A stretch of 64,000 bases of DNA from Escherichia phage ECML-359. The stretch lies in the sequence record OL631482.1; one strand, 5' to 3'. Under the pieces are notes generated by a model. That model ran no database searches and was not told the DNA's origin. It saw nothing but the letters and a program-made list of their open reading frames with translations. This document shows, in pieces, positions 4,820 through 41,762 of this stretch (position 1 is its first letter; each line of letters begins with the position of its first letter). A program made the translations under genes and the position numbers.

Positions 4820-4887
4820 TTTGTTTTCCTCATCAGTAGTTGATGGGATAATGATACACCGTTCAAAGGGGCTTGTACACCCCTTTT

Positions 4888-6282: not shown

Positions 6283-8096
6283 TGGTGTTTAACCCTATGC
6301 ATGATTTCTTTATTTTTGCCGAGATTAAATCCGCGTTCGTTCGGATTTCCCAAATAACCGCAAGTTCTTCTTATTGTGTTCATCTTTTTAGGGTCAGTTT
6401 CTCCACAAATAGAACAAACAAATCCGTTTTCAGTAGGAGTCATTTCATGGGTACTTCCACACGTAAAACATTTATCTACTGGCATGTTAACACCAAAATA
6501 ATCTAAATGTTGCGCGGCATAATCCCATACAGCCTCAAGACCTTTTAGGTTATTTTTCATATCAGGAAGTTCAACATAAGAAATGTGACCACCTGTCGCA
6601 ATGAAATGATATGGTGCTTCACGAGAAATCTTTTCAAACGGAGTGATATTTTCTTCTACTGAAACATGGAAACTGTTAGTGTACCATCCTTTATCGGTAA
6701 CATCTTTTACACTTCCATATTTTTCAGTATCAAGTTTACAGAAGCGATAACAAAGGTTTTCAGCAGGAGTAGAATACAAGCTAAAAGCAAAACCGGTTCT
6801 TTCAGTCCACTGCTTAAGACGAGCATTCATTTTAGTCAAAATTTCTTGTCCAATATCACGACCGACAAGAATATTCAATTCGTGAATACCAATGTATCCC
6901 AAAGACACTGAACTTCTACCGTTTTTAAATAACTCAATTATATCATCATCGGGTTTAAGACGAACCCCGAATGCACCTTCTTGGTAAAGAATAGGAGCAA
7001 CAGTCGCTTTAACTCCTTTTAAGGAATTAATTCTACACATCAAAGCTTCAAAACACAAATCCATTCGCTCATTGAACAATTCGATAAATTTCTGTTCATT
7101 GAACTGTGTTCCAATATAAGAATCTAACGCAATGCGAGGAAGATTCAGTGTTACAACGCCAAGATTATTACGTCCATCAAGAATTTCATTGCCAGTCGAA
7201 TCTTTCCATAAGCTCAAGAAACTACGGCAACCCATTGGAGAAACAGGAATAGATGAACCGGTGATAGCTTTGTTATTCTTAACTGAAATAATATCAGGAT
7301 ACATCCTTTTGCTTGCACACTCTAGAGCAAGCTGCTTAATATCATAGTTCGGGTCGTCTTTATAAAGATTAACACCTTCTTCAACGAACATAACAAGTTT
7401 AGGGAAAATAGGAGTTATCCCATCGCGACCAAGGCCTTTAATACGATTTTTCAGAATTGCTTTCTGAATCATTCGTTCAGTCCAGTCAGTTCCCGTGCCA
7501 AACGTAATTGTCACAAAAGGCGTTTGCCCATTTGAACTAAAGAGCGTATTTACTTCATATTCATAAGCTTGGAATGCATCGTATACGTCTTTTTCTGTTT
7601 TAGATTGGGCATAATTCAATGCATCAGTGATTTGCCATTTTTCTGCATCTTCAATATGTTTTGCGTATGTACGTTTAACATAAGGAGAAAATACTTTGTC
7701 TACATTAGCAAAAGTCGTTCCGCCATATTGGTGAGAAGCAACCTGTGCAGTAATTTGTGCCATAATTGCAGTAGCAACACCGATTGATTTAGGAGTTTCA
7801 ATCTGTGCATTACCAAGCTTAAATCCGTTCTCAAGCATTCCTTTTAAATCTACTAAACAGCAATTAGTAAATGGAAGAGCAGGGGAATAATCAATATCAT
7901 GGAAATGAATAATTCCACTTTCATGTGCTTTCATAATAAAAGACGCGACCATATTTTTGGCAATGTGTTTAGATACAATACCAGCCATAAGGTCCCGTTG
8001 AGTTGGAAAAACACGAGAATCTTTATTAGCATTCTCGTTTAAAAGGTCTTTATTAGTTTTATGAATCAATCCTTCAATTTCGTTTTCAATTGTCAT
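6279..8096 (-). CDS. nrdD: anaerobic ribonucleoside-triphosphate reductase (class III)
   Basis: 605 aa; C-terminal glycyl-radical motif RRTCGYLG and CxxC zinc ribbon; continuous ORF with no intron. Confidence 0.95.
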   Translation of the reverse strand: MTIENEIEGLIHKTNKDLLNENANKDSRVFPTQRDLMAGIVSKHIAKNMVASFIMKAHESGIIHFHDIDYSPALPFTNCCLVDLKGMLENGFKLGNAQIETPKSIGVATAIMAQITAQVASHQYGGTTFANVDKVFSPYVKRTYAKHIEDAEKWQITDALNYAQSKTEKDVYDAFQAYEYEVNTLFSSNGQTPFVTITFGTGTDWTERMIQKAILKNRIKGLGRDGITPIFPKLVMFVEEGVNLYKDDPNYDIKQLALECASKRMYPDIISVKNNKAITGSSIPVSPMGCRSFLSLWKDSTGNEILDGRNNLGVVTLNLPRIALDSYIGTQFNEQKFIELFNERMDLCFEALMCRINSLKGVKATVAPILYQEGAFGVRLKPDDDIIELFKNGRSSVSLGYIGIHELNILVGRDIGQEILTKMNARLKQWTERTGFAFSLYSTPAENLCYRFCKLDTEKYGSVKDVTDKGWYTNSFHVSVEENITPFEKISREAPYHFIATGGHISYVELPDMKNNLKGLEAVWDYAAQHLDYFGVNMPVDKCFTCGSTHEMTPTENGFVCSICGETDPKKMNTIRRTCGYLGNPNERGFNLGKNKEIMHRVKHQ

Positions 8097-8566
8097 TTTA
8101 AACTCTTTCTAAGCTGCTTCTTAAATGAAGCCATTAATTGTGTTTTGGTGTCAGATTCATTATAAGTCATACCATTCAAAAGCATTTCCCGAATCATTTC
8201 TTCTTTCCCCAGACGACCGAACTCTTTGGCTTTGTCTGTTACAAAATTGGGGTGAATATTGTTTTCGGTATAATCAGATTTCAGATAGACAAGCAAACTC
8301 TCTAACCATTCCAGGTAGTCAACATCGCGACTTTTTAGACCTGAACGGCTGAACTTATGCTTCATTTGTCCTTCTGTTCCATTGCACAGATTGCATAGTA
8401 ACCCGCGAACCTTACCAGCTTTTGGCCCGTTCAATTCGTGGTCATGGTCAAGATGGTTGGCCTGAACATCGGTGTCCAAATCACGGTGGCAAATTGGACA
8501 CTTACCAGCTTGTGCATCATAAAGTTTTTGTTTTTCTTCTTTGTATAATTTGCCAGTCAACAACAT
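8093..8566 (-). CDS. 49: endonuclease VII (Holliday junction resolvase)
   Basis: 157 aa; CPICHRDL...ANHLDHDHELNGPKAGKVRGLLCNLCN matches T4 gp49 as recalled. Confidence 0.9.
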   Translation of the reverse strand: MLLTGKLYKEEKQKLYDAQAGKCPICHRDLDTDVQANHLDHDHELNGPKAGKVRGLLCNLCNGTEGQMKHKFSRSGLKSRDVDYLEWLESLLVYLKSDYTENNIHPNFVTDKAKEFGRLGKEEMIREMLLNGMTYNESDTKTQLMASFKKQLRKSLK

Positions 8567-14764: not shown

Positions 14765-14793
14765 ATTATACGTCTATCCCCATACCATGTACA
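14765..14793 (-). promoter_or_regulatory. early promoter candidate (-35 TGTACA, 17 bp, -10 TATAAT)
   Basis: Minus-strand reading TGTACAtggtatggggatagacgTATAAT; conserved leader to ATG 14728. Confidence 0.45.
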
Positions 14794-14796
14794 CAT

Positions 14797-19627: not shown

Positions 19628-19655
19628 TGTATTCTCCTCAGTAGTTGATGGGATA

Positions 19656-19685
19656 ATAGTACACCCTTTTTATGAGGATGTAAAC
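19656..19685 (-). promoter_or_regulatory. early promoter candidate (-35 GTTTAC, 18 bp, -10 TACTAT)
   Basis: Minus-strand reading GTTTACatcctcataaaaagggtgTACTAT, then conserved leader tatcccatcaactactgaggagaa. Confidence 0.5.
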
Positions 19686-23717: not shown

Positions 23718-23773
23718 GATTATCTCCTTTTGTTTGATGGGATAATCATAACTCATTTCAATCTGCTTGTACA

Positions 23774-25552: not shown

Positions 25553-25852
25553 TTAGAAAGAACCAGAACCTTTAATTGTGTTCTGGCGACCTTTATTTTC
25601 TAATTCAGAATGGTCGATTTCGTATGCTTGTGCTACACCAAAGGCCTTTTTAACTTTAGCTAAAGAACCTTTAGATGTAACAATATTAAAAGTATTGCCT
25701 TTAGTAAAATCAACCAAATCCACTTGTACACCCTGTTTACCGAGGCTTGCTACAATAGCATCAACATATTGTTGGTCTAAAGTACCTTGGACTCCAATTT
25801 GGAATGCTTTAGGGGCTTTGGCTTCTGTGATAAATTCTTGATAAGTTTTCAT
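25553..25852 (-). CDS. internal-protein-like virion protein with capsid-targeting N-terminus
   Basis: Starts MKTYQEFITEA, the T4 IP capsid-targeting sequence; early promoter cassette upstream. Confidence 0.65.
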   Translation of the reverse strand: MKTYQEFITEAKAPKAFQIGVQGTLDQQYVDAIVASLGKQGVQVDLVDFTKGNTFNIVTSKGSLAKVKKAFGVAQAYEIDHSELENKGRQNTIKGSGSF

Positions 25853-25877
25853 TTATTCTCTCCAAGTTGATGGGATA

Positions 25878-25906
25878 ATTATACACTATCCCATCATAAA
25901 GTAAAC
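25878..25906 (-). promoter_or_regulatory. early promoter (-35 GTTTAC, 17 bp, -10 TATAAT) inside palindrome
   Basis: Minus-strand reading GTTTACtttatgatgggatagtgTATAAT; -10 lies in loop of GATGGGATA/TATCCCATC inverted repeat. Confidence 0.55.
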
Positions 25907-25908
25907 AG

Positions 25909-26172
25909 TTATGCTTTACCGCCAGAAACAATACCAAAGGTCTCAAAGTCCCATTCAATATCATCAACATCAACTTTCTTACCAGCAACAACAAATGCGA
26001 TTTCACGGCGTTTTGCATAGGTGACAATTTCTTTACCATCACCGCCAAAGAAAGAATACCCATTACGCTTCATGGTGCCAAAGTCTTCAGCATCGCCAGC
26101 AAAGGCGCGAACTTTAAAAGCACCAGTAGGAGCTTTGGCAGATTCAGTAATAAATTCTTGATAAGTTTTCAT
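25909..26172 (-). CDS. internal-protein-like virion protein with capsid-targeting N-terminus
   Basis: From internal Met: MKTYQEFITES...; mature part shares GDAEDF..(K/R)NGY motif with 39408..39707. Confidence 0.65.
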   Translation of the reverse strand: MKTYQEFITESAKAPTGAFKVRAFAGDAEDFGTMKRNGYSFFGGDGKEIVTYAKRREIAFVVAGKKVDVDDIEWDFETFGIVSGGKA

Positions 26173-26663: not shown

Positions 26664-26692
26664 ATTATAACCCTATCATTTGGAGATGTACA
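26664..26692 (-). promoter_or_regulatory. early promoter (-35 TGTACA, 17 bp, -10 TATAAT) inside palindrome
   Basis: Minus-strand reading TGTACAtctccaaatgatagggtTATAAT upstream of denV. Confidence 0.5.
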
Positions 26693-27181
26693 CTAATATG
26701 CGTCAAAAGTTCCGGTACGGAACGTTTCTATAACTCGTTTGGCTCGGTTCGGAGTCTGGACTTTATACCATCTTGAGTCCGCCAGTTCCTTGGCAGCCGC
26801 TTCCCATGATTTAGCCTTCAGTAATCGCATACCCTTAGGAAAACCAGCAACACCAGCAACACCCATCTGGAATACCATATTAATGAGTGCACAACGACGA
26901 ACTTCATCCAGTACATCATAAACAGGTTTTAAGACAGGATGCCTCAAGATTCCGGCTTTAGCCTTTTCGACCGAACGGTTAAACAGTGTTTCGGCTTCGT
27001 GCTGGGTTATACGACCATTACAAACGCGACCCATGAGCTTATCGAGCTCGGCGCGAGCAACATCTTTAGATGGGTTCTTAGTTATCAGTTGCCCGATGCC
27101 AATGGTCCAATAGCCTTCAGTATCTTTATACAAATCCAACTTACAACCTTCATCTATACGTAACATTTCGAATATATTCAT
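26693..27181 (-). CDS. e: lysozyme (endolysin)
   Basis: 162 aa; [12 protein letters not shown]...[13 protein letters not shown]...[14 protein letters not shown] matches T4 lysozyme as recalled. Confidence 0.95.
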
Positions 27182-27895: not shown

Positions 27896-28479
27896 TTACG
27901 GCATTCCTCAATAAAGGAGTTCAATGTATTTTTCTTAGTGATATCGTCATATACCTTTTTAACTTTAGAAATACGAAAAGGTACTTCAATAACCATAGTC
28001 CATAAAAATGATGCAATAAGCCCAGCGAGAGCAGTAGAAAAGCACGCACCCATTACAGCTACGGGTGCTTCATTTTTGCCTGTCAAGAAAAACCACAGAA
28101 ACGGTAAAAATAAGATTCCAGCCCAGGCATAAAACCTGGAACAAATTAACTTATCAAATTCATCACTCCAGGTACGAAATCCATATTTCTTGCTATAAGA
28201 AATTAATGGGTCTGGTGTCTGTTCTTTGAGCGGTTCTGGTTGATGCCCATTAATAATGTATCCCATTTTATATTCCTTAATTAAAAGCTCTTTCACATGA
28301 CGATTGCATCGCGACCAATCAACATTTTCCACCTTGATTCCTTCATCACCATCATCAAGGTTCGCCCAATATTTTTTGGTAATCATAAATTCATCTCTTG
28401 ATACAATTATACCTGCATTTTCTGCCCGGCGGATGAAGTTTACATCAACACCCATGCACCCGGGCTCATAAAGGGCCAT
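27892..28479 (-). CDS. hypothetical membrane protein (195 aa) with C-terminal FIEECRK
   Basis: Two C-terminal TM helices (FYAWAGILFLPFLWFFL, VAVMGACFSTALAGLIASFLWTMVI). Confidence 0.5.
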   Translation of the reverse strand: MALYEPGCMGVDVNFIRRAENAGIIVSRDEFMITKKYWANLDDGDEGIKVENVDWSRCNRHVKELLIKEYKMGYIINGHQPEPLKEQTPDPLISYSKKYGFRTWSDEFDKLICSRFYAWAGILFLPFLWFFLTGKNEAPVAVMGACFSTALAGLIASFLWTMVIEVPFRISKVKKVYDDITKKNTLNSFIEECRK

Positions 28480-29171
28480 TACCAGCCCTCCATAGGGAAT
28501 TCCAGATATACTTGAGCATTAACGCGGATTTCATTTGTAATCTTTTTAACACGGTCAGTATTACGAGACACACGACCAAACCAGCGCCACCCGTTACTTA
28601 CTGCGCGAGAACCTGTATGCCATGTCTGCCAATCAAACTGGAGCAATGTGCGGTCAGGAGCATCCCACTTGGTTAATTCATTGGACTCAATTTTTTCCAG
28701 AACTTCTTTATGCCACTGACGATAGATAAGTTCGCCTTCAGGAATCTGACTAAATTGTGCAGTTCCGGTTGCAAAATAAGTAGGACACACATCAGCGTTA
28801 ACAAGACCAAGAATATGTTCAGAATGGTAACGAGGATTATCATAATCAGGTTGCCCTGCGGTAATAAAGTGTTGACCCACCGGAATATCCGGACGTGGTA
28901 CATCGTCATGGTGATAACCTGGGATAGCAGGATACCAACCAGGCATCAGCATATGAACCCGAGAATCAAACACCAAATTATCGGGGCCATCAGTCCATTC
29001 TTTTGGTAGGTTATCAAGAAAACTGCGCGTGATTGGACCACCATGCTCATACGCAAATTCTGGATAGCAGTTAAAGAACATTGGTTCATTTTTGATTTGG
29101 TCATTTTGTACGTTATGTGCAAAACCACCAACTGCACGAGCTTGACTATTAAAAGTTTTCGGACCGTTCAT
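28479..29171 (-). CDS. hypothetical protein with 2OG-Fe(II)-oxygenase-like motif arrangement
   Basis: YHHDD (HxD), downstream His (WHTGS) and RxS (GRVS) in the order seen in 2OG oxygenases; motif-level only. Confidence 0.5.
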   Translation of the reverse strand: MNGPKTFNSQARAVGGFAHNVQNDQIKNEPMFFNCYPEFAYEHGGPITRSFLDNLPKEWTDGPDNLVFDSRVHMLMPGWYPAIPGYHHDDVPRPDIPVGQHFITAGQPDYDNPRYHSEHILGLVNADVCPTYFATGTAQFSQIPEGELIYRQWHKEVLEKIESNELTKWDAPDRTLLQFDWQTWHTGSRAVSNGWRWFGRVSRNTDRVKKITNEIRVNAQVYLEFPMEGW

Positions 29172-29230: not shown

Positions 29231-30190
29231 TTATTTTTCGAAAGGACGAATTAAATGCTGGTTAGCTTTGAAACGTTTAACATAGTCTTCATGACCCAGG
29301 GTGTTGTACATATTAACCACTTCCTGGTAATGTTCCCAGGCATACTCGCGGAACCATCCAGAAGTAATGGAGGTGCAGACTTTTTCCAGCGCAATATTGA
29401 AGCTCACGGATGGAGAGATATTGAACTCATTGGGAACCTGCGAACGCTCCAGAGCGAGTACACATGCTTCTTCATAAACCCCTGCCAGTTTAATAATCTC
29501 AGGGAGTGCTTCAAATTTTTCACGCGAGGTCATAACTTCTGAATCATCCTTCATATAGAACTTATATGCAGGCTTATCAGCAAGCGCCACGGCCTCGTGG
29601 ATGGAGTCATGGTCAAGGGTATAGATTGTATCATTAAAGAAAGTTTTCTTGCCCACGTCTAGTTTAGGGTGACTATATGACAATGTTTCTGCCTGGCGCT
29701 GCAGCATGATTTTATGCAGTTCGTCATTAAGAACAACACCCTTATTGCGAAGGTAATTAATATGACTCATTGTCTTCAGGAAGAATGGATTGTTCTTCAG
29801 GTAACGATGAGACAGTTTAATTGCCAGACAAATATCAGGAGTCGCCCAATAGAAACCTGTAAGACGGTCTTTCTTAATATGATTTTCAGCGTATTTCAAG
29901 AGACGATAACTTGAGGTGAAATCTTCATCTTGAAGCTCACCAGTAATTTCTCGTACGTTAGTCAGGGCACGGACAATATAAGCTTCAAAATAGGTTTCTT
30001 TTCCATTGTACATACATTTAAAAGCTTGGACATCAGGGTTATCCACAGGAACATGAGCACCGAACATACGTGCTTTAAAGTGGTTCCAGGAGCCCTGGTC
30101 AGCGATAAAGTCCCAATCAGAGTTTTCAATTTTCTGACTTTCAATCAGACCAGCGTTATGTAATGCACGAGAACCAATAACTAACATCAT
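29231..30190 (-). CDS. hypothetical protein (319 aa)
   Basis: ORF track; no motif recognised. Confidence 0.55.
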   Translation of the reverse strand: MMLVIGSRALHNAGLIESQKIENSDWDFIADQGSWNHFKARMFGAHVPVDNPDVQAFKCMYNGKETYFEAYIVRALTNVREITGELQDEDFTSSYRLLKYAENHIKKDRLTGFYWATPDICLAIKLSHRYLKNNPFFLKTMSHINYLRNKGVVLNDELHKIMLQRQAETLSYSHPKLDVGKKTFFNDTIYTLDHDSIHEAVALADKPAYKFYMKDDSEVMTSREKFEALPEIIKLAGVYEEACVLALERSQVPNEFNISPSVSFNIALEKVCTSITSGWFREYAWEHYQEVVNMYNTLGHEDYVKRFKANQHLIRPFEK

Positions 30191-35045: not shown

Positions 35046-35074
35046 ATTATACACTATCCCACTTGGAAGTAAAA
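35046..35074 (-). promoter_or_regulatory. early promoter (-35 TTTTAC, 17 bp, -10 TATAAT) inside palindrome
   Basis: Minus-strand reading TTTTACttccaagtgggatagtgTATAAT, then conserved leader ...actgagttaccaaataaaacactggagaataaa. Confidence 0.5.
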
Positions 35075-37156: not shown

Positions 37157-37233
37157 TGGTCGGGGTGGTGGGATTCTAACCCACAACCTACGGTTTAGAA
37201 GACCGTTGCTCTATACAATTGAGCTACACCCCG
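37157..37233 (-). tRNA. tRNA-Arg (anticodon UCU), CCA encoded
   Basis: Hand-folded cloverleaf: acceptor CGGGGTG/CACCCCG, D stem GCTC/GAGC, anticodon stem ACGGT/ACCGT, loop CTTCTAA, T stem GTGGG/CCCAC. Confidence 0.8.
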
Positions 37234-37235
37234 GG

Positions 37236-37309
37236 TGGCCCCATCCGGACTTGAACCGGAAACCTGCCAGTTATGAGCCGGATGCTCTAACCAATTGAGC
37301 TACAGGGCC
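37236..37309 (-). tRNA. tRNA with CAU anticodon (Met or Ile2)
   Basis: Hand-folded cloverleaf: D stem GCTC/GAGC, T stem TCCGG/CCGGA with TTCAAGT loop, anticodon loop CTCATAA; one anticodon-stem mismatch. Confidence 0.65.
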
Positions 37310-38187: not shown

Positions 38188-38612
38188 CCTTCATCAACAA
38201 TAGTATGTGTATTAGCATTAACAATCTGCCACCAGTCAAAACGGTTGGAACCATAACAAGGCTTCTTCTCGTTTTCTTTAATGATATCACGCAGTTCATC
38301 TTCAGTCGCAGCTTTTGCAATTAAGTCAGCATAACCGCCACGAGGATAATAGCTATCACCTGCAAAGAGCAAAAAGTTTGTTTTGATATTCTTGAATTCT
38401 TCAAGTGTAATAACTGTTCCATTGGGTTGAACAATATCCACATAACTATACCCTAATTCCTGGGCTTTATCTACCGCCTCAAGCAGGGTGTCGTGTGCCC
38501 ACCCAATTTGACAATCTGGTTTTTCAGATGGGTTTGCCTGATAATCCGCATACACTTTATACATTTTACTCACCTTTGGAGATTTTATCCATAACGAAAG
38601 AGATTGAACCAA
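38184..38612 (-). CDS. hypothetical protein (142 aa)
   Basis: ORF track. Confidence 0.5.
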   Translation of the reverse strand: MVQSLSLWIKSPKVSKMYKVYADYQANPSEKPDCQIGWAHDTLLEAVDKAQELGYSYVDIVQPNGTVITLEEFKNIKTNFLLFAGDSYYPRGGYADLIAKAATEDELRDIIKENEKKPCYGSNRFDWWQIVNANTHTIVDEG

Positions 38613-38751
38613 TTAAAAATGCAACTACTAAAGAGATTATATTCTCAGAAGTTGAAAGCATATTCAACATAAAGCCAGCAAACATGCTAAAACCAAAAGC
38701 GGTAACAGCAACAAGGGCAGTAACATTTCTAATTAATTCGCAACGTTTCAT
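38566..38751 (-). CDS. hypothetical small membrane protein (61 aa)
   Basis: Two hydrophobic segments; directly downstream of promoter cassette. Confidence 0.4.
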   Translation of the reverse strand: MKRCELIRNVTALVAVTAFGFSMFAGFMLNMLSTSENIISLVVAFLIGSISFVMDKISKGE

Positions 38752-38779
38752 TTTATTCTCCTCAGTAGTTGATGGGATA

Positions 38780-38808
38780 ATTATACGCTATCCCATTCAA
38801 AAGTACAC
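38780..38808 (-). promoter_or_regulatory. early promoter candidate (-35 GTGTAC, 17 bp, -10 TATAAT) inside palindrome
   Basis: Minus-strand reading GTGTACttttgaatgggatagcgTATAAT, then leader tatcccatcaactactgaggagaataaa. Confidence 0.45.
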
Positions 38809-39063
38809 TTATTTTTTAGGGATACGATAGTAACGCATCTCAACATCTTTCTGCTTGTGCCACTTTTTGATAAGGTCTTCAGAACCTTTAATGGTAACGA
38901 TGTCATAGCGACCATCATGCGATACTTCAGCACTTAACTGCATGAAGTTGTCTAGTGAACGGCGCAATTCCTCATTAGAAAAACTACCACGCGGGGAACC
39001 AACATAAGCAAACTCAACTTTTGCATCTGCGGCTTCGTTAATAAATTCTTGATAAGTTTTCAT
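38809..39063 (-). CDS. internal-protein-like virion protein with capsid-targeting N-terminus
   Basis: Starts MKTYQEFINEAA. Confidence 0.65.
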   Translation of the reverse strand: MKTYQEFINEAADAKVEFAYVGSPRGSFSNEELRRSLDNFMQLSAEVSHDGRYDIVTIKGSEDLIKKWHKQKDVEMRYYRIPKK

Positions 39064-39088
39064 GTTGTCTCCAGTAGTTGATGAGATA

Positions 39089-39118
39089 ATTATACTGCAG
39101 TTATCCCATCGCGTATAC
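39089..39118 (-). promoter_or_regulatory. early promoter candidate (-35 GTATAC, 18 bp, -10 TATAAT)
   Basis: Minus-strand reading GTATACgcgatgggataactgcagTATAAT, then leader tatctcatcaactactggagacaac. Confidence 0.45.
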
Positions 39119-39119
39119 T

Positions 39120-39362
39120 TTATTTTAAGTCTTCCAGACGTTTTTTCATCTTGGTGCCGTTCTTAGCAATCTCGCCTGCATCAGAACAAAGAGCAAGGAG
39201 AGCTTTAACTTTACCCTGGTCGCCTTTAAAAGATGATGCATCTACTGAATCAGCAAGTTCTTTGATACGTGCAAACAGGCGCTCTGCTTCAGCAAGGGCT
39301 TGACCAAGTTTAACTTCCATACCATGGGAAGATTCTGTTATAAATGTTTGATAAGTTTTCAT
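39120..39362 (-). CDS. internal-protein-like virion protein with capsid-targeting N-terminus
   Basis: Starts MKTYQTFITESS. Confidence 0.65.
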   Translation of the reverse strand: MKTYQTFITESSHGMEVKLGQALAEAERLFARIKELADSVDASSFKGDQGKVKALLALCSDAGEIAKNGTKMKKRLEDLK

Positions 39363-39384
39363 GTTGTCTCCAAGCCATAAAAAG

Positions 39385-39400
39385 GGGATAATTATCCCCT
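39385..39400. terminator. perfect 16-bp palindrome GGGGATAATTATCCCC flanked by A4/T4, terminator-like
   Basis: Looks like a collapsed copy of the promoter-cassette palindrome lacking a separate -10. Confidence 0.45.
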
Positions 39401-39407
39401 TTTGTTA

Positions 39408-39707
39408 TTACATCTTACTACCACGAATTACGCCATAAGCAGCGAAGTCGTCAGTGATATTTTTAGGAGTGTTTTTACCCGTTTCAATGAAAGCGATGCT
39501 TGATTTCTGACTAAAAGAGGTAATTTTGTTATAGTTAGAGTCAAGGAAGGTATAACCATTTTTACGCAGCTGGTCAAAGTCTTCAGCGTCGCCTTTACCT
39601 TTGAAGTCAACCCATTTGTAGGTGTTTTTCTTCTGAAGGCCCAGAGGCCAGGTTTTTGCTTCTGCCAGGTAATTGTTTTCTACCAAAAATTCATGAAAAG
39701 TTTGCAT
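39408..39707 (-). CDS. internal-protein-like virion protein with capsid-targeting N-terminus
   Basis: Starts MQTFHEFLVEN; mature part paralogous to 25909..26172. Confidence 0.65.
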   Translation of the reverse strand: MQTFHEFLVENNYLAEAKTWPLGLQKKNTYKWVDFKGKGDAEDFDQLRKNGYTFLDSNYNKITSFSQKSSIAFIETGKNTPKNITDDFAAYGVIRGSKM

Positions 39708-39715
39708 TTGAAATC

Positions 39716-39988
39716 CTATTTAAGATAAATTGCGTATTTTTTATAACCAGCCGTCTCATGGCGAAGACCCTTGTCATTGGCAAAACGCTCAATGTTATTA
39801 ATTTGGTTCTGGTCAAGTTCTGAAATGCCAAACGCGAAAAAGTTGCGTTTGTTGCCAATTGTTATATGGTCAGTTAAGTCAATGCTATACAGGTGATTGA
39901 TATTGTCAATCATAGCTTTGACTGCTTTACTAATTTTTACTTCTTCATTTAGTTGTGACTCGTTGAAAAATTCATTGAAAGTTTTCAT
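39716..39988 (-). CDS. internal-protein-like virion protein with capsid-targeting N-terminus
   Basis: Starts MKTFNEFFNES. Confidence 0.6.
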   Translation of the reverse strand: MKTFNEFFNESQLNEEVKISKAVKAMIDNINHLYSIDLTDHITIGNKRNFFAFGISELDQNQINNIERFANDKGLRHETAGYKKYAIYLK

Positions 39989-39996
39989 AAGAAACC

Positions 39997-40329
39997 TTAT
40001 TTATAAAGTTTTGCTAGTTCTTTACGTCCGCGAGCAGACATAATAAATTGTTCATCGCCAATTTTAAAATAAGCCATACCGCCGTCAACAGCGATACCAA
40101 TTTCTTTAGTACCTTCTTTGCCTTTCCACTTGCCACCAGATTTCAGGACAGCTTCAACTGCAGCTTTGGAATATTTGGACGTTTGAAAACGTTCATTACC
40201 AATCTGAAAGAAAACACCATCTGCATTTTTGGTTAAACCAAATTTCAGGGAGCCTTCACTATCATCAATTGATTTGGTCTCATTGATGGCGGATTCGGCT
40301 AAAAACTCGTTGTAAGTTTTGATGTTCAT
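39997..40329 (-). CDS. internal-protein-like virion protein with capsid-targeting-like N-terminus
   Basis: Starts MNIKTYNEFLAES; Gly/Lys-rich mature part. Confidence 0.55.
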   Translation of the reverse strand: MNIKTYNEFLAESAINETKSIDDSEGSLKFGLTKNADGVFFQIGNERFQTSKYSKAAVEAVLKSGGKWKGKEGTKEIGIAVDGGMAYFKIGDEQFIMSARGRKELAKLYK

Positions 40330-40364
40330 ATTAACTCCGTTTGTTCATTCGTTGGTGTAGGAAC

Positions 40365-40393
40365 ATAATACTGCACCTACACTTATTTGTACA
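40365..40393 (-). promoter_or_regulatory. early promoter (-35 TGTACA, 17 bp, -10 TATTAT) inside palindrome
   Basis: Minus-strand reading TGTACAaataagtgtaggtgcagTATTAT; arms GTGTAGG/CCTACAC flank the -10. Confidence 0.5.
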
Positions 40394-41084
<691 letters not shown>

Positions 41085-41085
<1 letters not shown>

Positions 41086-41762
41086 TATATTACCTTATTA
41101 ATTTTATCAAAAAGTTCTTCGAGTGTGCCATCGTTTTTAATAACAATGTCACTAGCTAGTGGTGGAAGTCCAGCTTCCGTAATGTGTGTATCGGTAGAAT
41201 GATTTGCTTCATCGCGTTCTACAAAGATTATTGTAGCACCCATCGCCCGAAGCGAATCAAGTTCGTTCTTTTGACGAACATCTGGGACAACGTAATATTT
41301 ATATCCAGAATAGAGGTTGTCAAGATAATCGCACGCAAAAGTTTTAATCCAAAACATGCTGTCGAACTCTGTACAAACGATGTCAGTTCCAAGGGTCTGC
41401 ATGAAACGTCTAACTGTCCAGGGCTCAACATTATTTAGTGTGTGAAATTCAATGATTTTACGAACCATATCTGGATTCGGAAGGTCAAGATTGTATTGTT
41501 GTTTCAACCATTCAAGAGCATCAACCAGAAGAATATAAGCTTCGGTGTTGTTCATTATCAAGGTTTTTTCACGGTCATAACCTTGTCCATCAAAATTTTC
41601 CAGGGTCAAATTGTGTGGCAGGTCTTGACGAATCCACGCTTTATAAAGCGCTTCTTTAATCGGACCTGCAAGCTGCCACTTTGTTCCGTTTTGACTAATA
41701 ACATAATCAGCAGTCGTATCTTTACCACTGCGTTTTTTACCCACAATCGCAATTAATTTCAT
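41085..41762 (-). CDS. 1: deoxynucleoside monophosphate kinase gp1
   Basis: MKLIAIVGKKRSGKDTTADYV...YQLAGPIKEAL matches T4 gp1 as recalled; P-loop. Confidence 0.9.

Follow-up and report, generated by a model that had tools for sequence, protein, structure and literature searches.

A Five-Gene Array of Candidate Injected Proteins at the ipI Locus of Escherichia Phage ECML-359

The window analyzed here is a stretch of 64,000 nucleotides from Escherichia phage ECML-359 (sequence record OL631482.1), which carries an array of five small minus-strand genes at positions 38,809 to 40,329. The array is the polymorphic internal-protein (ip) locus of the T-even phages, which is already known (according to later summaries it was reportedly described by Repoila et al. 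in 1994, EMBO J 13:4181) and whose families have been sequenced and mostly named. It is best explained, with a probability of about 0.82, as a hyperplastic ipI locus of five interchangeable internal-protein cassettes, the products of which would be packaged into the head, injected with the DNA, and directed against host nucleases. Added here are a family of 110-aa proteins with a capsid-targeting sequence (CTS) and a predicted Whirly-like fold, a link of the 84-aa protein to the anti-McrBC Ip6 family, leaderless relatives of Ip9, breakpoints that run from leader to leader, a caveat on GmrSD as the target, and two extra CTS genes.

The ip genes of T-even phages are polymorphic and place a conserved CTS on otherwise unrelated small proteins (PMC3012670, PMC9026906, PMC4122927, PMC12373910). 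At least 10 internal proteins (Ips) have been reported, and three of them, Ip1 (IPI*), Ip2, and Ip3, inhibit GmrSD enzymes, a different one in each case (PMC12373910). A CTS-bearing protein from the ipI locus of phage Bas37, Bas37_0260, was reported to inhibit McrBC (bioRxiv 10.1101/2025.11.20.689424, 2025 preprint).

Results and Discussion

Organization of the Array

Five consecutive minus-strand open reading frames (ORFs) of 84, 80, 99, 90, and 110 aa had been described in an earlier note made from the DNA alone, and their coordinates, lengths, and N-termini were reproduced exactly. The 110-aa gene (39997..40329), whose family is unnamed, encodes the N-terminus MNIKTYNEFLAES. The 90-aa gene (39716..39988) is Ip9 and begins with MKTFNEFFNES. 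The 99-aa gene (39408..39707) is a variable cassette that begins with MQTFHEFLVEN. The 80-aa gene (39120..39362) is Ip5, with the N-terminus MKTYQTFITES and a cargo predicted to be helical. The 84-aa gene (38809..39063) encodes a divergent member of the Ip6 family that begins with MKTYQEFINEA, and it adjoins tRNA.4. The ORFs are tightly packed and are preceded by Shine-Dalgarno sequences.

The array is syntenic with T4 ipI in the gene order tRNA.4 - ip - 57B - 57A - 1 - 3. The expansion over T4 proposed in the earlier note is therefore real, with five genes here and a single ipI between 57B and tRNA.4 in T4. Both flanks are conserved and lie on the minus strand. The 57B gene (40394..40849) encodes the anti-CBASS nuclease Acb1, as identified by Pfam PF23474 (1.2e-59) and by synteny. 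The tRNA.4 gene (38566..38751) encodes a small membrane protein that matches PHROG 1692 and is annotated as tRNA.4 in VR7. The position of Acb1 directly upstream of the array places the ip genes within a larger counter-defence neighbourhood.

The source genome is a Gaprivervirus, a T-even phage of the VR7/SP18 type, as judged from its sequence; the array region is 98.8% identical to that of Escherichia phage EAWsc9 and 94-99% identical to that of other members such as VR7, SP18, and VR26. Exact sequences of all seven CTS proteins, from the array and from a second locus, are already contained in public databases, and the individual array ORFs have homologues in 14 to 494 phage records. The PHROG families of internal head or virion proteins are matched by four of the five array proteins. 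In Pfam and NCBIfam the five gave sub-threshold noise or nothing, and phmmer searches of the five against all Protein Data Bank (PDB) sequences returned no meaningful relative.

The Capsid-Targeting Leader

The leader pattern M-x(0-3)-[KQ]-T-[YF]-x-[ET]-F was searched at all start sites of the window with a frame of 40 codons or more (n = 1,615). Seven sites match, against 0.0235 expected from residue shuffles (shuffle maximum 2). The array genes supply five of these matches, so the MKTYQEFIxE-type start that had been noticed on each ORF stands; the remaining two come from a pair of neighbouring minus-strand genes at 25553-26172. All seven leaders have an aromatic residue (Y/F) at position 4, F at position 7, and E at position 10, the 110-aa protein with an offset of two residues. 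Position 8 is I or L in six of the seven, four of them in the array, and Phe in that of the 90-aa protein. The seven leaders are identical to the T4 sequence MKTYQEFIAE at 5-9 of 10 residues. The attribution of this leader to all three T4 internal proteins needs correction: it heads IPII and IPIII, but the leader of T4 IPI has 19 residues and reads MKTFKEF...ITE|A.

The CTS was defined on IPIII, where the first 10 residues are enough for packaging; residues 4 and 7 serve targeting and residues 8 and 10 serve processing (PMC9026906, summarizing Mullaney & Black 1996). The gp21 protease cleaves after L/I-X-E (PMC9026906). In the genomes compared here the protein sequence of the leader, with the mapped residues 4, 7, 8, and 10, is kept even where the DNA has diverged to 63-65%. 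Four of the five array leaders close with a predicted gp21 site, which reads INE|A, ITE|S, LVE|N, or LAE|S. The 99-aa array protein has the leader MQTFHEFLVE|N and, at residue 16, LAE|A as a further site. AlphaFold2 models of the 110-aa and 90-aa proteins show the leader as a short helix, followed at the predicted cut site by a linker with a predicted local distance difference test score (pLDDT) below 50. The mature parts have lengths of 70-98 aa and isoelectric points of 8.0-9.3. They are mutually dissimilar within the array, as the earlier note had said, with a best mature-versus-mature blastp E of 0.66.

Proposed Mechanism

The product of each gene would have two parts, an N-terminal CTS leader of about 10-12 residues and an unrelated, small, mostly basic cargo. 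The leader would bind the gp22 scaffolding core and bring the protein into the prohead, and the gp21 protease would cut after the Glu of L/I-x-E. The freed cargo would then remain in the head with the DNA and be ejected with it into the next host, and would thus be present before any phage gene is expressed; all of these steps are established for T4. By extension from the characterized relatives, each cargo may neutralize a different early-acting host nuclease, chiefly the type IV (modification-dependent) restriction enzymes. The packaging, cleavage, and injection of the five proteins are proposed by analogy with T4, and the genes for gp68, the prohead core protease (gp21), and the gp22 scaffold are annotated in EAWsc9 at 6424-8341, outside the 64-kb window. 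The reading of the array as a set of injected anti-defence proteins is supported by the synteny with ipI, by the PHROG internal-protein matches, and by the retention of the CTS residues, and it agrees with the published consensus.

The 84-aa and 80-aa Proteins

The 84-aa protein matches PHROG 8111, "internal virion protein", at 1.6e-15; just 14 phage records contain this allele. Deposited records give the name ip6 to a 77-aa relative of the gene. The corresponding gene of Bas37 (phage KarlGJung, MZ501089), Bas37_0260, has 77 aa and adjoins tRNA.4, and VR7 Ip6 is 78% identical to its product. Behind the leader, the 84-aa protein shares 41% identity with Bas37_0260 over 59 aa (E 6e-11), and the two genes have the same position by tRNA.4. 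The alignment identifies the 84-aa protein as a diverged homologue of the McrBC inhibitor. The leaders of the two proteins are the same, whereas the remainder of the 84-aa protein is strongly diverged, is 7 aa longer, and has another C-terminus, which would be consistent with a specificity of its own.

The 80-aa protein matches PHROG 3499 at 2.4e-41. Its gene is near-identical to VR26 ip5, with one substitution in the leader, and ip5 is annotated in VR26 and PP01. The mature part is found in 494 phage records and is 90% identical to tequatrovirus copies, as it is to PP01 ip5 and Bas37_0261. In Bas37_0261 (2364-2621 of the compared stretch) the Ip5 cargo stands behind a 15-residue IPI-like leader, MKTFKEFATKTTITE|S. 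One Ip5 cargo is thus found under two leaders, MKTYQTFITE and MKTFKEFATKTTITE, and therefore leader and cargo recombine independently.

The 90-aa Protein and Its Leaderless Relatives

The 90-aa protein shares 78% identity with UniProt Q38376, "Ip9 [Enterobacteria phage RB15]", and matches PHROG 7673 at 9.5e-56. The gene is annotated as ip9 in VR7 and VR26. The AlphaFold2 model of the protein (pLDDT 83.2) is a small alpha/beta sandwich, the structural neighbours of which are uninformative. An exhaustive HMMER search of 1.84 billion proteins provided nine representatives of the Ip9 family, some with a leader and some without. A leaderless homologue with 49% identity is encoded in the early region of the unrelated 43-kb siphovirus Bas70 (PQ850619; 2507-2725 of the compared stretch). 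The Bas70 copy aligns to the Ip9 profile only from position 20 on, as do other leaderless homologues in metagenomes; the contig of one of these (P0031) has merely 858 bp and is uninformative. In Bas70 the leader is lost where the T4-type prohead machinery is absent. At the level of sequence, these leaderless relatives support a design in which a delivery tag would be joined to a self-sufficient cargo.

The C-terminal 36 residues of Ip7 from phage OLB35 are Ip9-like, with about 80% identity. Judged by eye, its N-terminal half looks like the 99-aa protein encoded at the second locus (25553-25852). Ip7 thus appears chimera-like, which suggests that recombination may occur inside the cargo domains as well.

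The 110-aa Protein

The 110-aa gene is labeled "hypothetical" in public records. Its start is often placed 11 codons upstream, giving an ORF of 121 aa (39997-40362); this start falls within the promoter hairpin, and the leader is thereby hidden. The homologues in T4-like phages of Edwardsiella, Salmonella, Citrobacter, and Serratia start with the canonical MKTYxEF(L/I)TE, and across these genera the leader is conserved while the identity of the cargo falls to as low as 51%. Because the homologues keep the canonical leader while the cargo diverges, the family, which is annotated as an internal protein in no record, is judged from these alignments to be a genuine CTS family. The labels "profilin" for the 110-aa protein and "homing endonuclease" for the 99-aa protein in EAWsc9 were rejected, as neither is supported by any profile search.

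The cargo of the 110-aa protein has a predicted Whirly/PUR-like fold. The marks of this fold are two tandem beta-beta-beta-beta-alpha repeats and structural likeness to MRP1/2, p24, and Pur-alpha, and its assignment to the 110-aa cargo is tentative. The best model has a pLDDT of 76.7 and the other four have values of 53-67, from an alignment of 12 sequences, and confidence in the prediction is only moderate.

Recombination at Leaders and Cassettes

The 99-aa array protein matches PHROG 2667, "internal head protein", at 5.9e-21. Its gene is missing from UPEC07, P8, and VR26 and is an N-terminally truncated pseudogene in SP18. The junction in UPEC07, P8, and VR26, ...aataggatttcaaATGaaaacttatcaaaca..., keeps the upstream junction of the 99-aa gene and passes at the start codon into Ip5 coding sequence. 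The presence/absence unit is 345 bp in length (39362-39707) and runs from one ATG to the next ATG, so that it carries the terminator and the following ribosome-binding site (RBS) along with the 99-aa gene. Since the breakpoints fall exactly at two start codons, the DNA that codes for the leader is a recombination joint in its own right. A repeat finder returned two families, D1 and D2, that consist of leader-coding DNA plus the RBS, and two more, D3 and D4, that correspond to the promoter and stem-loop cassette described below.

Ten relatives carry differing subsets of 4 to 6 CTS genes at the locus, from at least seven families, and the order is always the same. The 110-aa and Ip9 genes are constant across the ten relatives, and the remaining families are variable. 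The comparison of the relatives shows an array that has been built and rebuilt by recombination at the leader-coding DNA and at the cassettes. Recombination at these two repeated joints accounts for related phages that carry different subsets in the same order.

Promoters and Cassettes

An early-promoter-like element, TGTACA-17-TATTAT, is located at 40355..40393 (-) upstream of the 110-aa gene, with its -10 sequence within a stem-loop. A cassette of the promoter-early-stem-loop (PeSL) type, with the sequence GTATAC ... GGGATA-loop-TATAAT-TATCTC ... CAACTACTGGAG, is located at 39077..39118 (-) upstream of the 84-aa gene. A second copy at 38768..38808 (-) lies upstream of tRNA.4 and marks the distal boundary of the array; both copies belong to repeat family D3. 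Between the 99-aa and 80-aa genes a terminator-like hairpin, GGGGATAATTATCCCC with a T-run, is found at 39375..39403 (-), with a folding free energy of -13 kcal/mol and a z-score of -3.0. This hairpin is related to the cassette stem through repeat family D4. The statement that several array genes have a promoter cassette of their own thus applies to the 110-aa gene and the 84-aa gene (as well as to tRNA.4 downstream), but not for the 90-aa and 99-aa genes, which follow 8-nt spacers after the preceding gene, nor for the 80-aa gene, which follows the terminator hairpin.

The same cassette is found at eight or more other sites in the window, and it also flanks T4 ipI. Further copies, all on the minus strand, are located at 4839-4856, 14765-14794, 19644-19661, 23733-23750, 26664-26693, and 35046-35060. 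The cassette combines an early sigma-70-like promoter with a stem-loop, is repeated, and stands at gene-content differences between relatives, which are the features of a PeSL, and it fits the published description (PMC4122927). Relative to the PeSL cassettes of T4-type hyperplastic regions (PMC2839356, PMC4122927), the early promoter, the stem-loop over the -10 sequence, the position beside variable genes, and the location at indel boundaries are the same. The differences are the local consensus, GT(G/T/A)TAC...GGGATA-loop-TATCCC...CAACTACTGGAG, and the leader-coding DNA as an extra joint with an ATG-to-ATG indel. Cassette copies of the form GTxTAC ... stem-loop with TATAAT ... CAACTACTGAGGAG also precede other small early genes on the minus strand.

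The array contains a single perfect T4 late-promoter box, TATAAATA, at 39998-40005 (-), and only 10 nt separate its end from the start codon of the 90-aa gene. It was rejected as a late promoter dedicated to that gene, because it stands too near the ATG and doubles as the Tyr-Lys-stop codons of the 110-aa gene. The box is more likely due to chance or serves downstream genes. The late supply of the array products is assumed to depend on transcripts that read through from late promoters lying farther upstream, with the box at 41296-41303 as one candidate.

Comparison with Known Systems

T4 IPI, which is processed to the GmrSD-CT596 inhibitor IPI*, is encoded at the same 57B-tRNA.4 locus between the same promoter/stem-loop cassettes. 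It has the same design of a targeting propeptide, a gp21 site, and a small basic mature protein, which is 76 aa in length as compared with 70-98 aa here. The differences are the 19-residue leader and the single gene at the T4 locus as against five genes here. The five mature domains gave a best E of 0.45 against T4 IPI* in a database of 10 sequences. No IPI* entry came up for any of the five when the PDB was searched with phmmer at E up to 10, in a copy in which the presence of the IPI* structure is unverified. Against T4 IPII and IPIII the mature domains are unrelated by blastp. These two proteins (Ip2 and Ip3; inhibitors of GmrSD-ECOR21/BrxU and GmrSD-ECOR17) have a leader to which those found here are identical at 5-9 of 10 residues. 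A second ip locus by e/denV exists in both phages; T4 ipII and ipIII lie between e and denV, whereas the genes found here lie downstream of denV.

Genes of the Ip4-Ip13 type in T-even phages (Ip5 of RB51 and PP01, Ip9 of RB15 and RB32, Ip6 of T6) represent the same phenomenon with nothing essential different, and the array is one such set of five cassettes, found in a gaprivervirus. The Dar (defence against restriction) proteins of phage P1 are likewise antirestriction proteins that are packed in the capsid beforehand and co-injected with the DNA. They are unrelated proteins from an unrelated phage family, and they are reportedly packaged through a hierarchy that depends on DarA and Hdf instead of a cleavable 10-residue tag (PMC12810830).

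Host Targets

The earlier note had taken GmrSD as the model target of the array. The precedent of IPI* stands, but the glucosyl-hydroxymethylcytosine (glucosyl-hmC) DNA that forms the substrate context of IPI* is probably absent in the gaprivervirus clade, as judged by proxy from the genes of EAWsc9 and from a report on VR7. In EAWsc9 no gene 42 or beta-gt is found between uvsX and imm/43, and no alpha-gt is found between 47 and 55. Gaprivervirus genomes are described as being without known enzymes for non-canonical bases, and DenB, Alc, and dCTPase are kept (PMC8056088). The DNA of VR7 is reported to contain modified cytosines that are unglycosylated (PMC6326788). For a phage with modified but unglycosylated DNA, an enzyme that recognizes only glucosyl-hmC is improbable as a natural enemy, and McrBC-like and BrxU-like enzymes, which act on modified cytosine without glycosylation, are more plausible targets than a glucosyl-hmC-specific GmrSD. 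Two labels given in EAWsc9 to genes near e were rejected as clues to DNA modification: "phytanoyl-CoA dioxygenase" (28479-29171, -) has no Pfam match, and "nucleotidyltransferase" (29231-30190, -) matches only DUF7277 and DUF7275 in Pfam.

Weighing of the Alternatives

Several observations weigh against the interpretation of the array as a set of packaged, injected nuclease inhibitors. Only early-type promoters are recognizable beside the array genes. The leader of the 90-aa protein has F-N-E at positions 8-10, without L or I, and the canonical site LNE|E is at 13-15; the RB15 orthologue has ISE at the corresponding leader site. The 110-aa leader, MNIKTYNEFLAE|S, is displaced by two residues. 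Virion proteomics for gapriverviruses were not found in the literature. With 41% identity to the McrBC inhibitor, the 84-aa protein may have a different target. VR7 is restricted more than 10^11-fold by BREX (PMC6326788), and the set does not cover every defence. The fold predicted for the 110-aa protein is of a nucleic-acid-binding type and is no obvious enzyme-inhibitor fold.

The last of these points leads to an explanation in which the proteins are packaged and injected but are not all restriction inhibitors, with at least the 110-aa protein acting on nucleic acid. That protein might protect or coat the incoming DNA or the single-stranded ends, assist in condensing or ejecting the DNA, or bind host RNA or single-stranded DNA during takeover. 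The 110-aa model is of moderate confidence, however, and SsgB, which has the same fold, binds protein and not nucleic acid. Internal proteins with a known target have so far all been type IV restriction inhibitors. This explanation is rather doubtful. A bolder reading is unlikely, namely that the cargoes are portable, self-sufficient anti-defence modules captured by T-even phages by means of the delivery tag, that in this non-glucosylating clade several of them act on defences to which no internal protein has so far been linked, and that the 110-aa protein is an injected single-stranded nucleic-acid binder that serves as a genome shield or decoy. If it were true, the 110-aa Whirly/PUR-like protein would represent a new functional class, as a decoy for DNA-sensing defence or as a shield of the genome.

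The proteins might instead be early cytoplasmic accessory proteins that are not packaged, with the N-terminal motif as a vestige or as a signal for recombination or translation initiation. The recognizable promoters next to the genes, all of the sigma-70 early cassette type, agree with this, as do the leaderless Ip9 homologue that evidently works from the early region of a siphovirus and the use of leader-coding DNA as a recombination joint. T4 ipI, however, has the same promoter/stem-loop flanks and encodes a textbook packaged, processed, and injected protein. The conservation of residues 4, 7, 8, and 10 in the leader protein despite the divergence of its DNA, the loss of the leader in Bas70 exactly where the T4-type prohead machinery is absent, and the reported packaging signal and anti-restriction phenotype of Bas37_0260 of the Ip6 family all argue against it as well, and make it very improbable. 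A last possibility, that the ORFs or the N-termini they have in common arose by chance in AT-rich DNA between genes, has nothing but the small ORF size in its favor; it is already refuted by the seven motif matches, the homologues in 14 to 494 records, and the tight packing with Shine-Dalgarno sequences, and its likelihood is close to nil.

Internal proteins are the earliest-acting counter-defence of a phage, because they arrive with the DNA as finished proteins. Targets are known for only four of them, namely Ip1, Ip2, and Ip3 (GmrSD variants) and Bas37_0260 (McrBC), and the array cassettes are candidate inhibitors. This is relevant to the choice and engineering of therapeutic T4-like phages. 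The leads are the diverged Ip6 allele against McrBC variants, the 110-aa family, and the leaderless Ip9 relatives.

The Second ip Locus and the tRNA Genes

The two CTS genes outside the array were not in the list of the earlier note. The 87-aa gene (25909..26172, -) begins with MKTYQEFITE|S. Its paralogue in the array is the 99-aa gene, and the two proteins are 36% identical over 61 aa (E 3e-14). The adjacent 99-aa gene (25553..25852, -) begins with MKTYQEFITE|A and has its own PeSL cassette at 25866-25906. The pair adjoins e/denV and is the counterpart of the T4 ipII/ipIII locus. The 99-aa gene of this pair and its cassette are absent from the near-identical phage EAWsc9.

Two tRNA genes are located at 37157-37309 (-), one for Arg-TCT and one with a CAT anticodon (Ile2 in the EAWsc9 annotation); the T4 cluster has eight.

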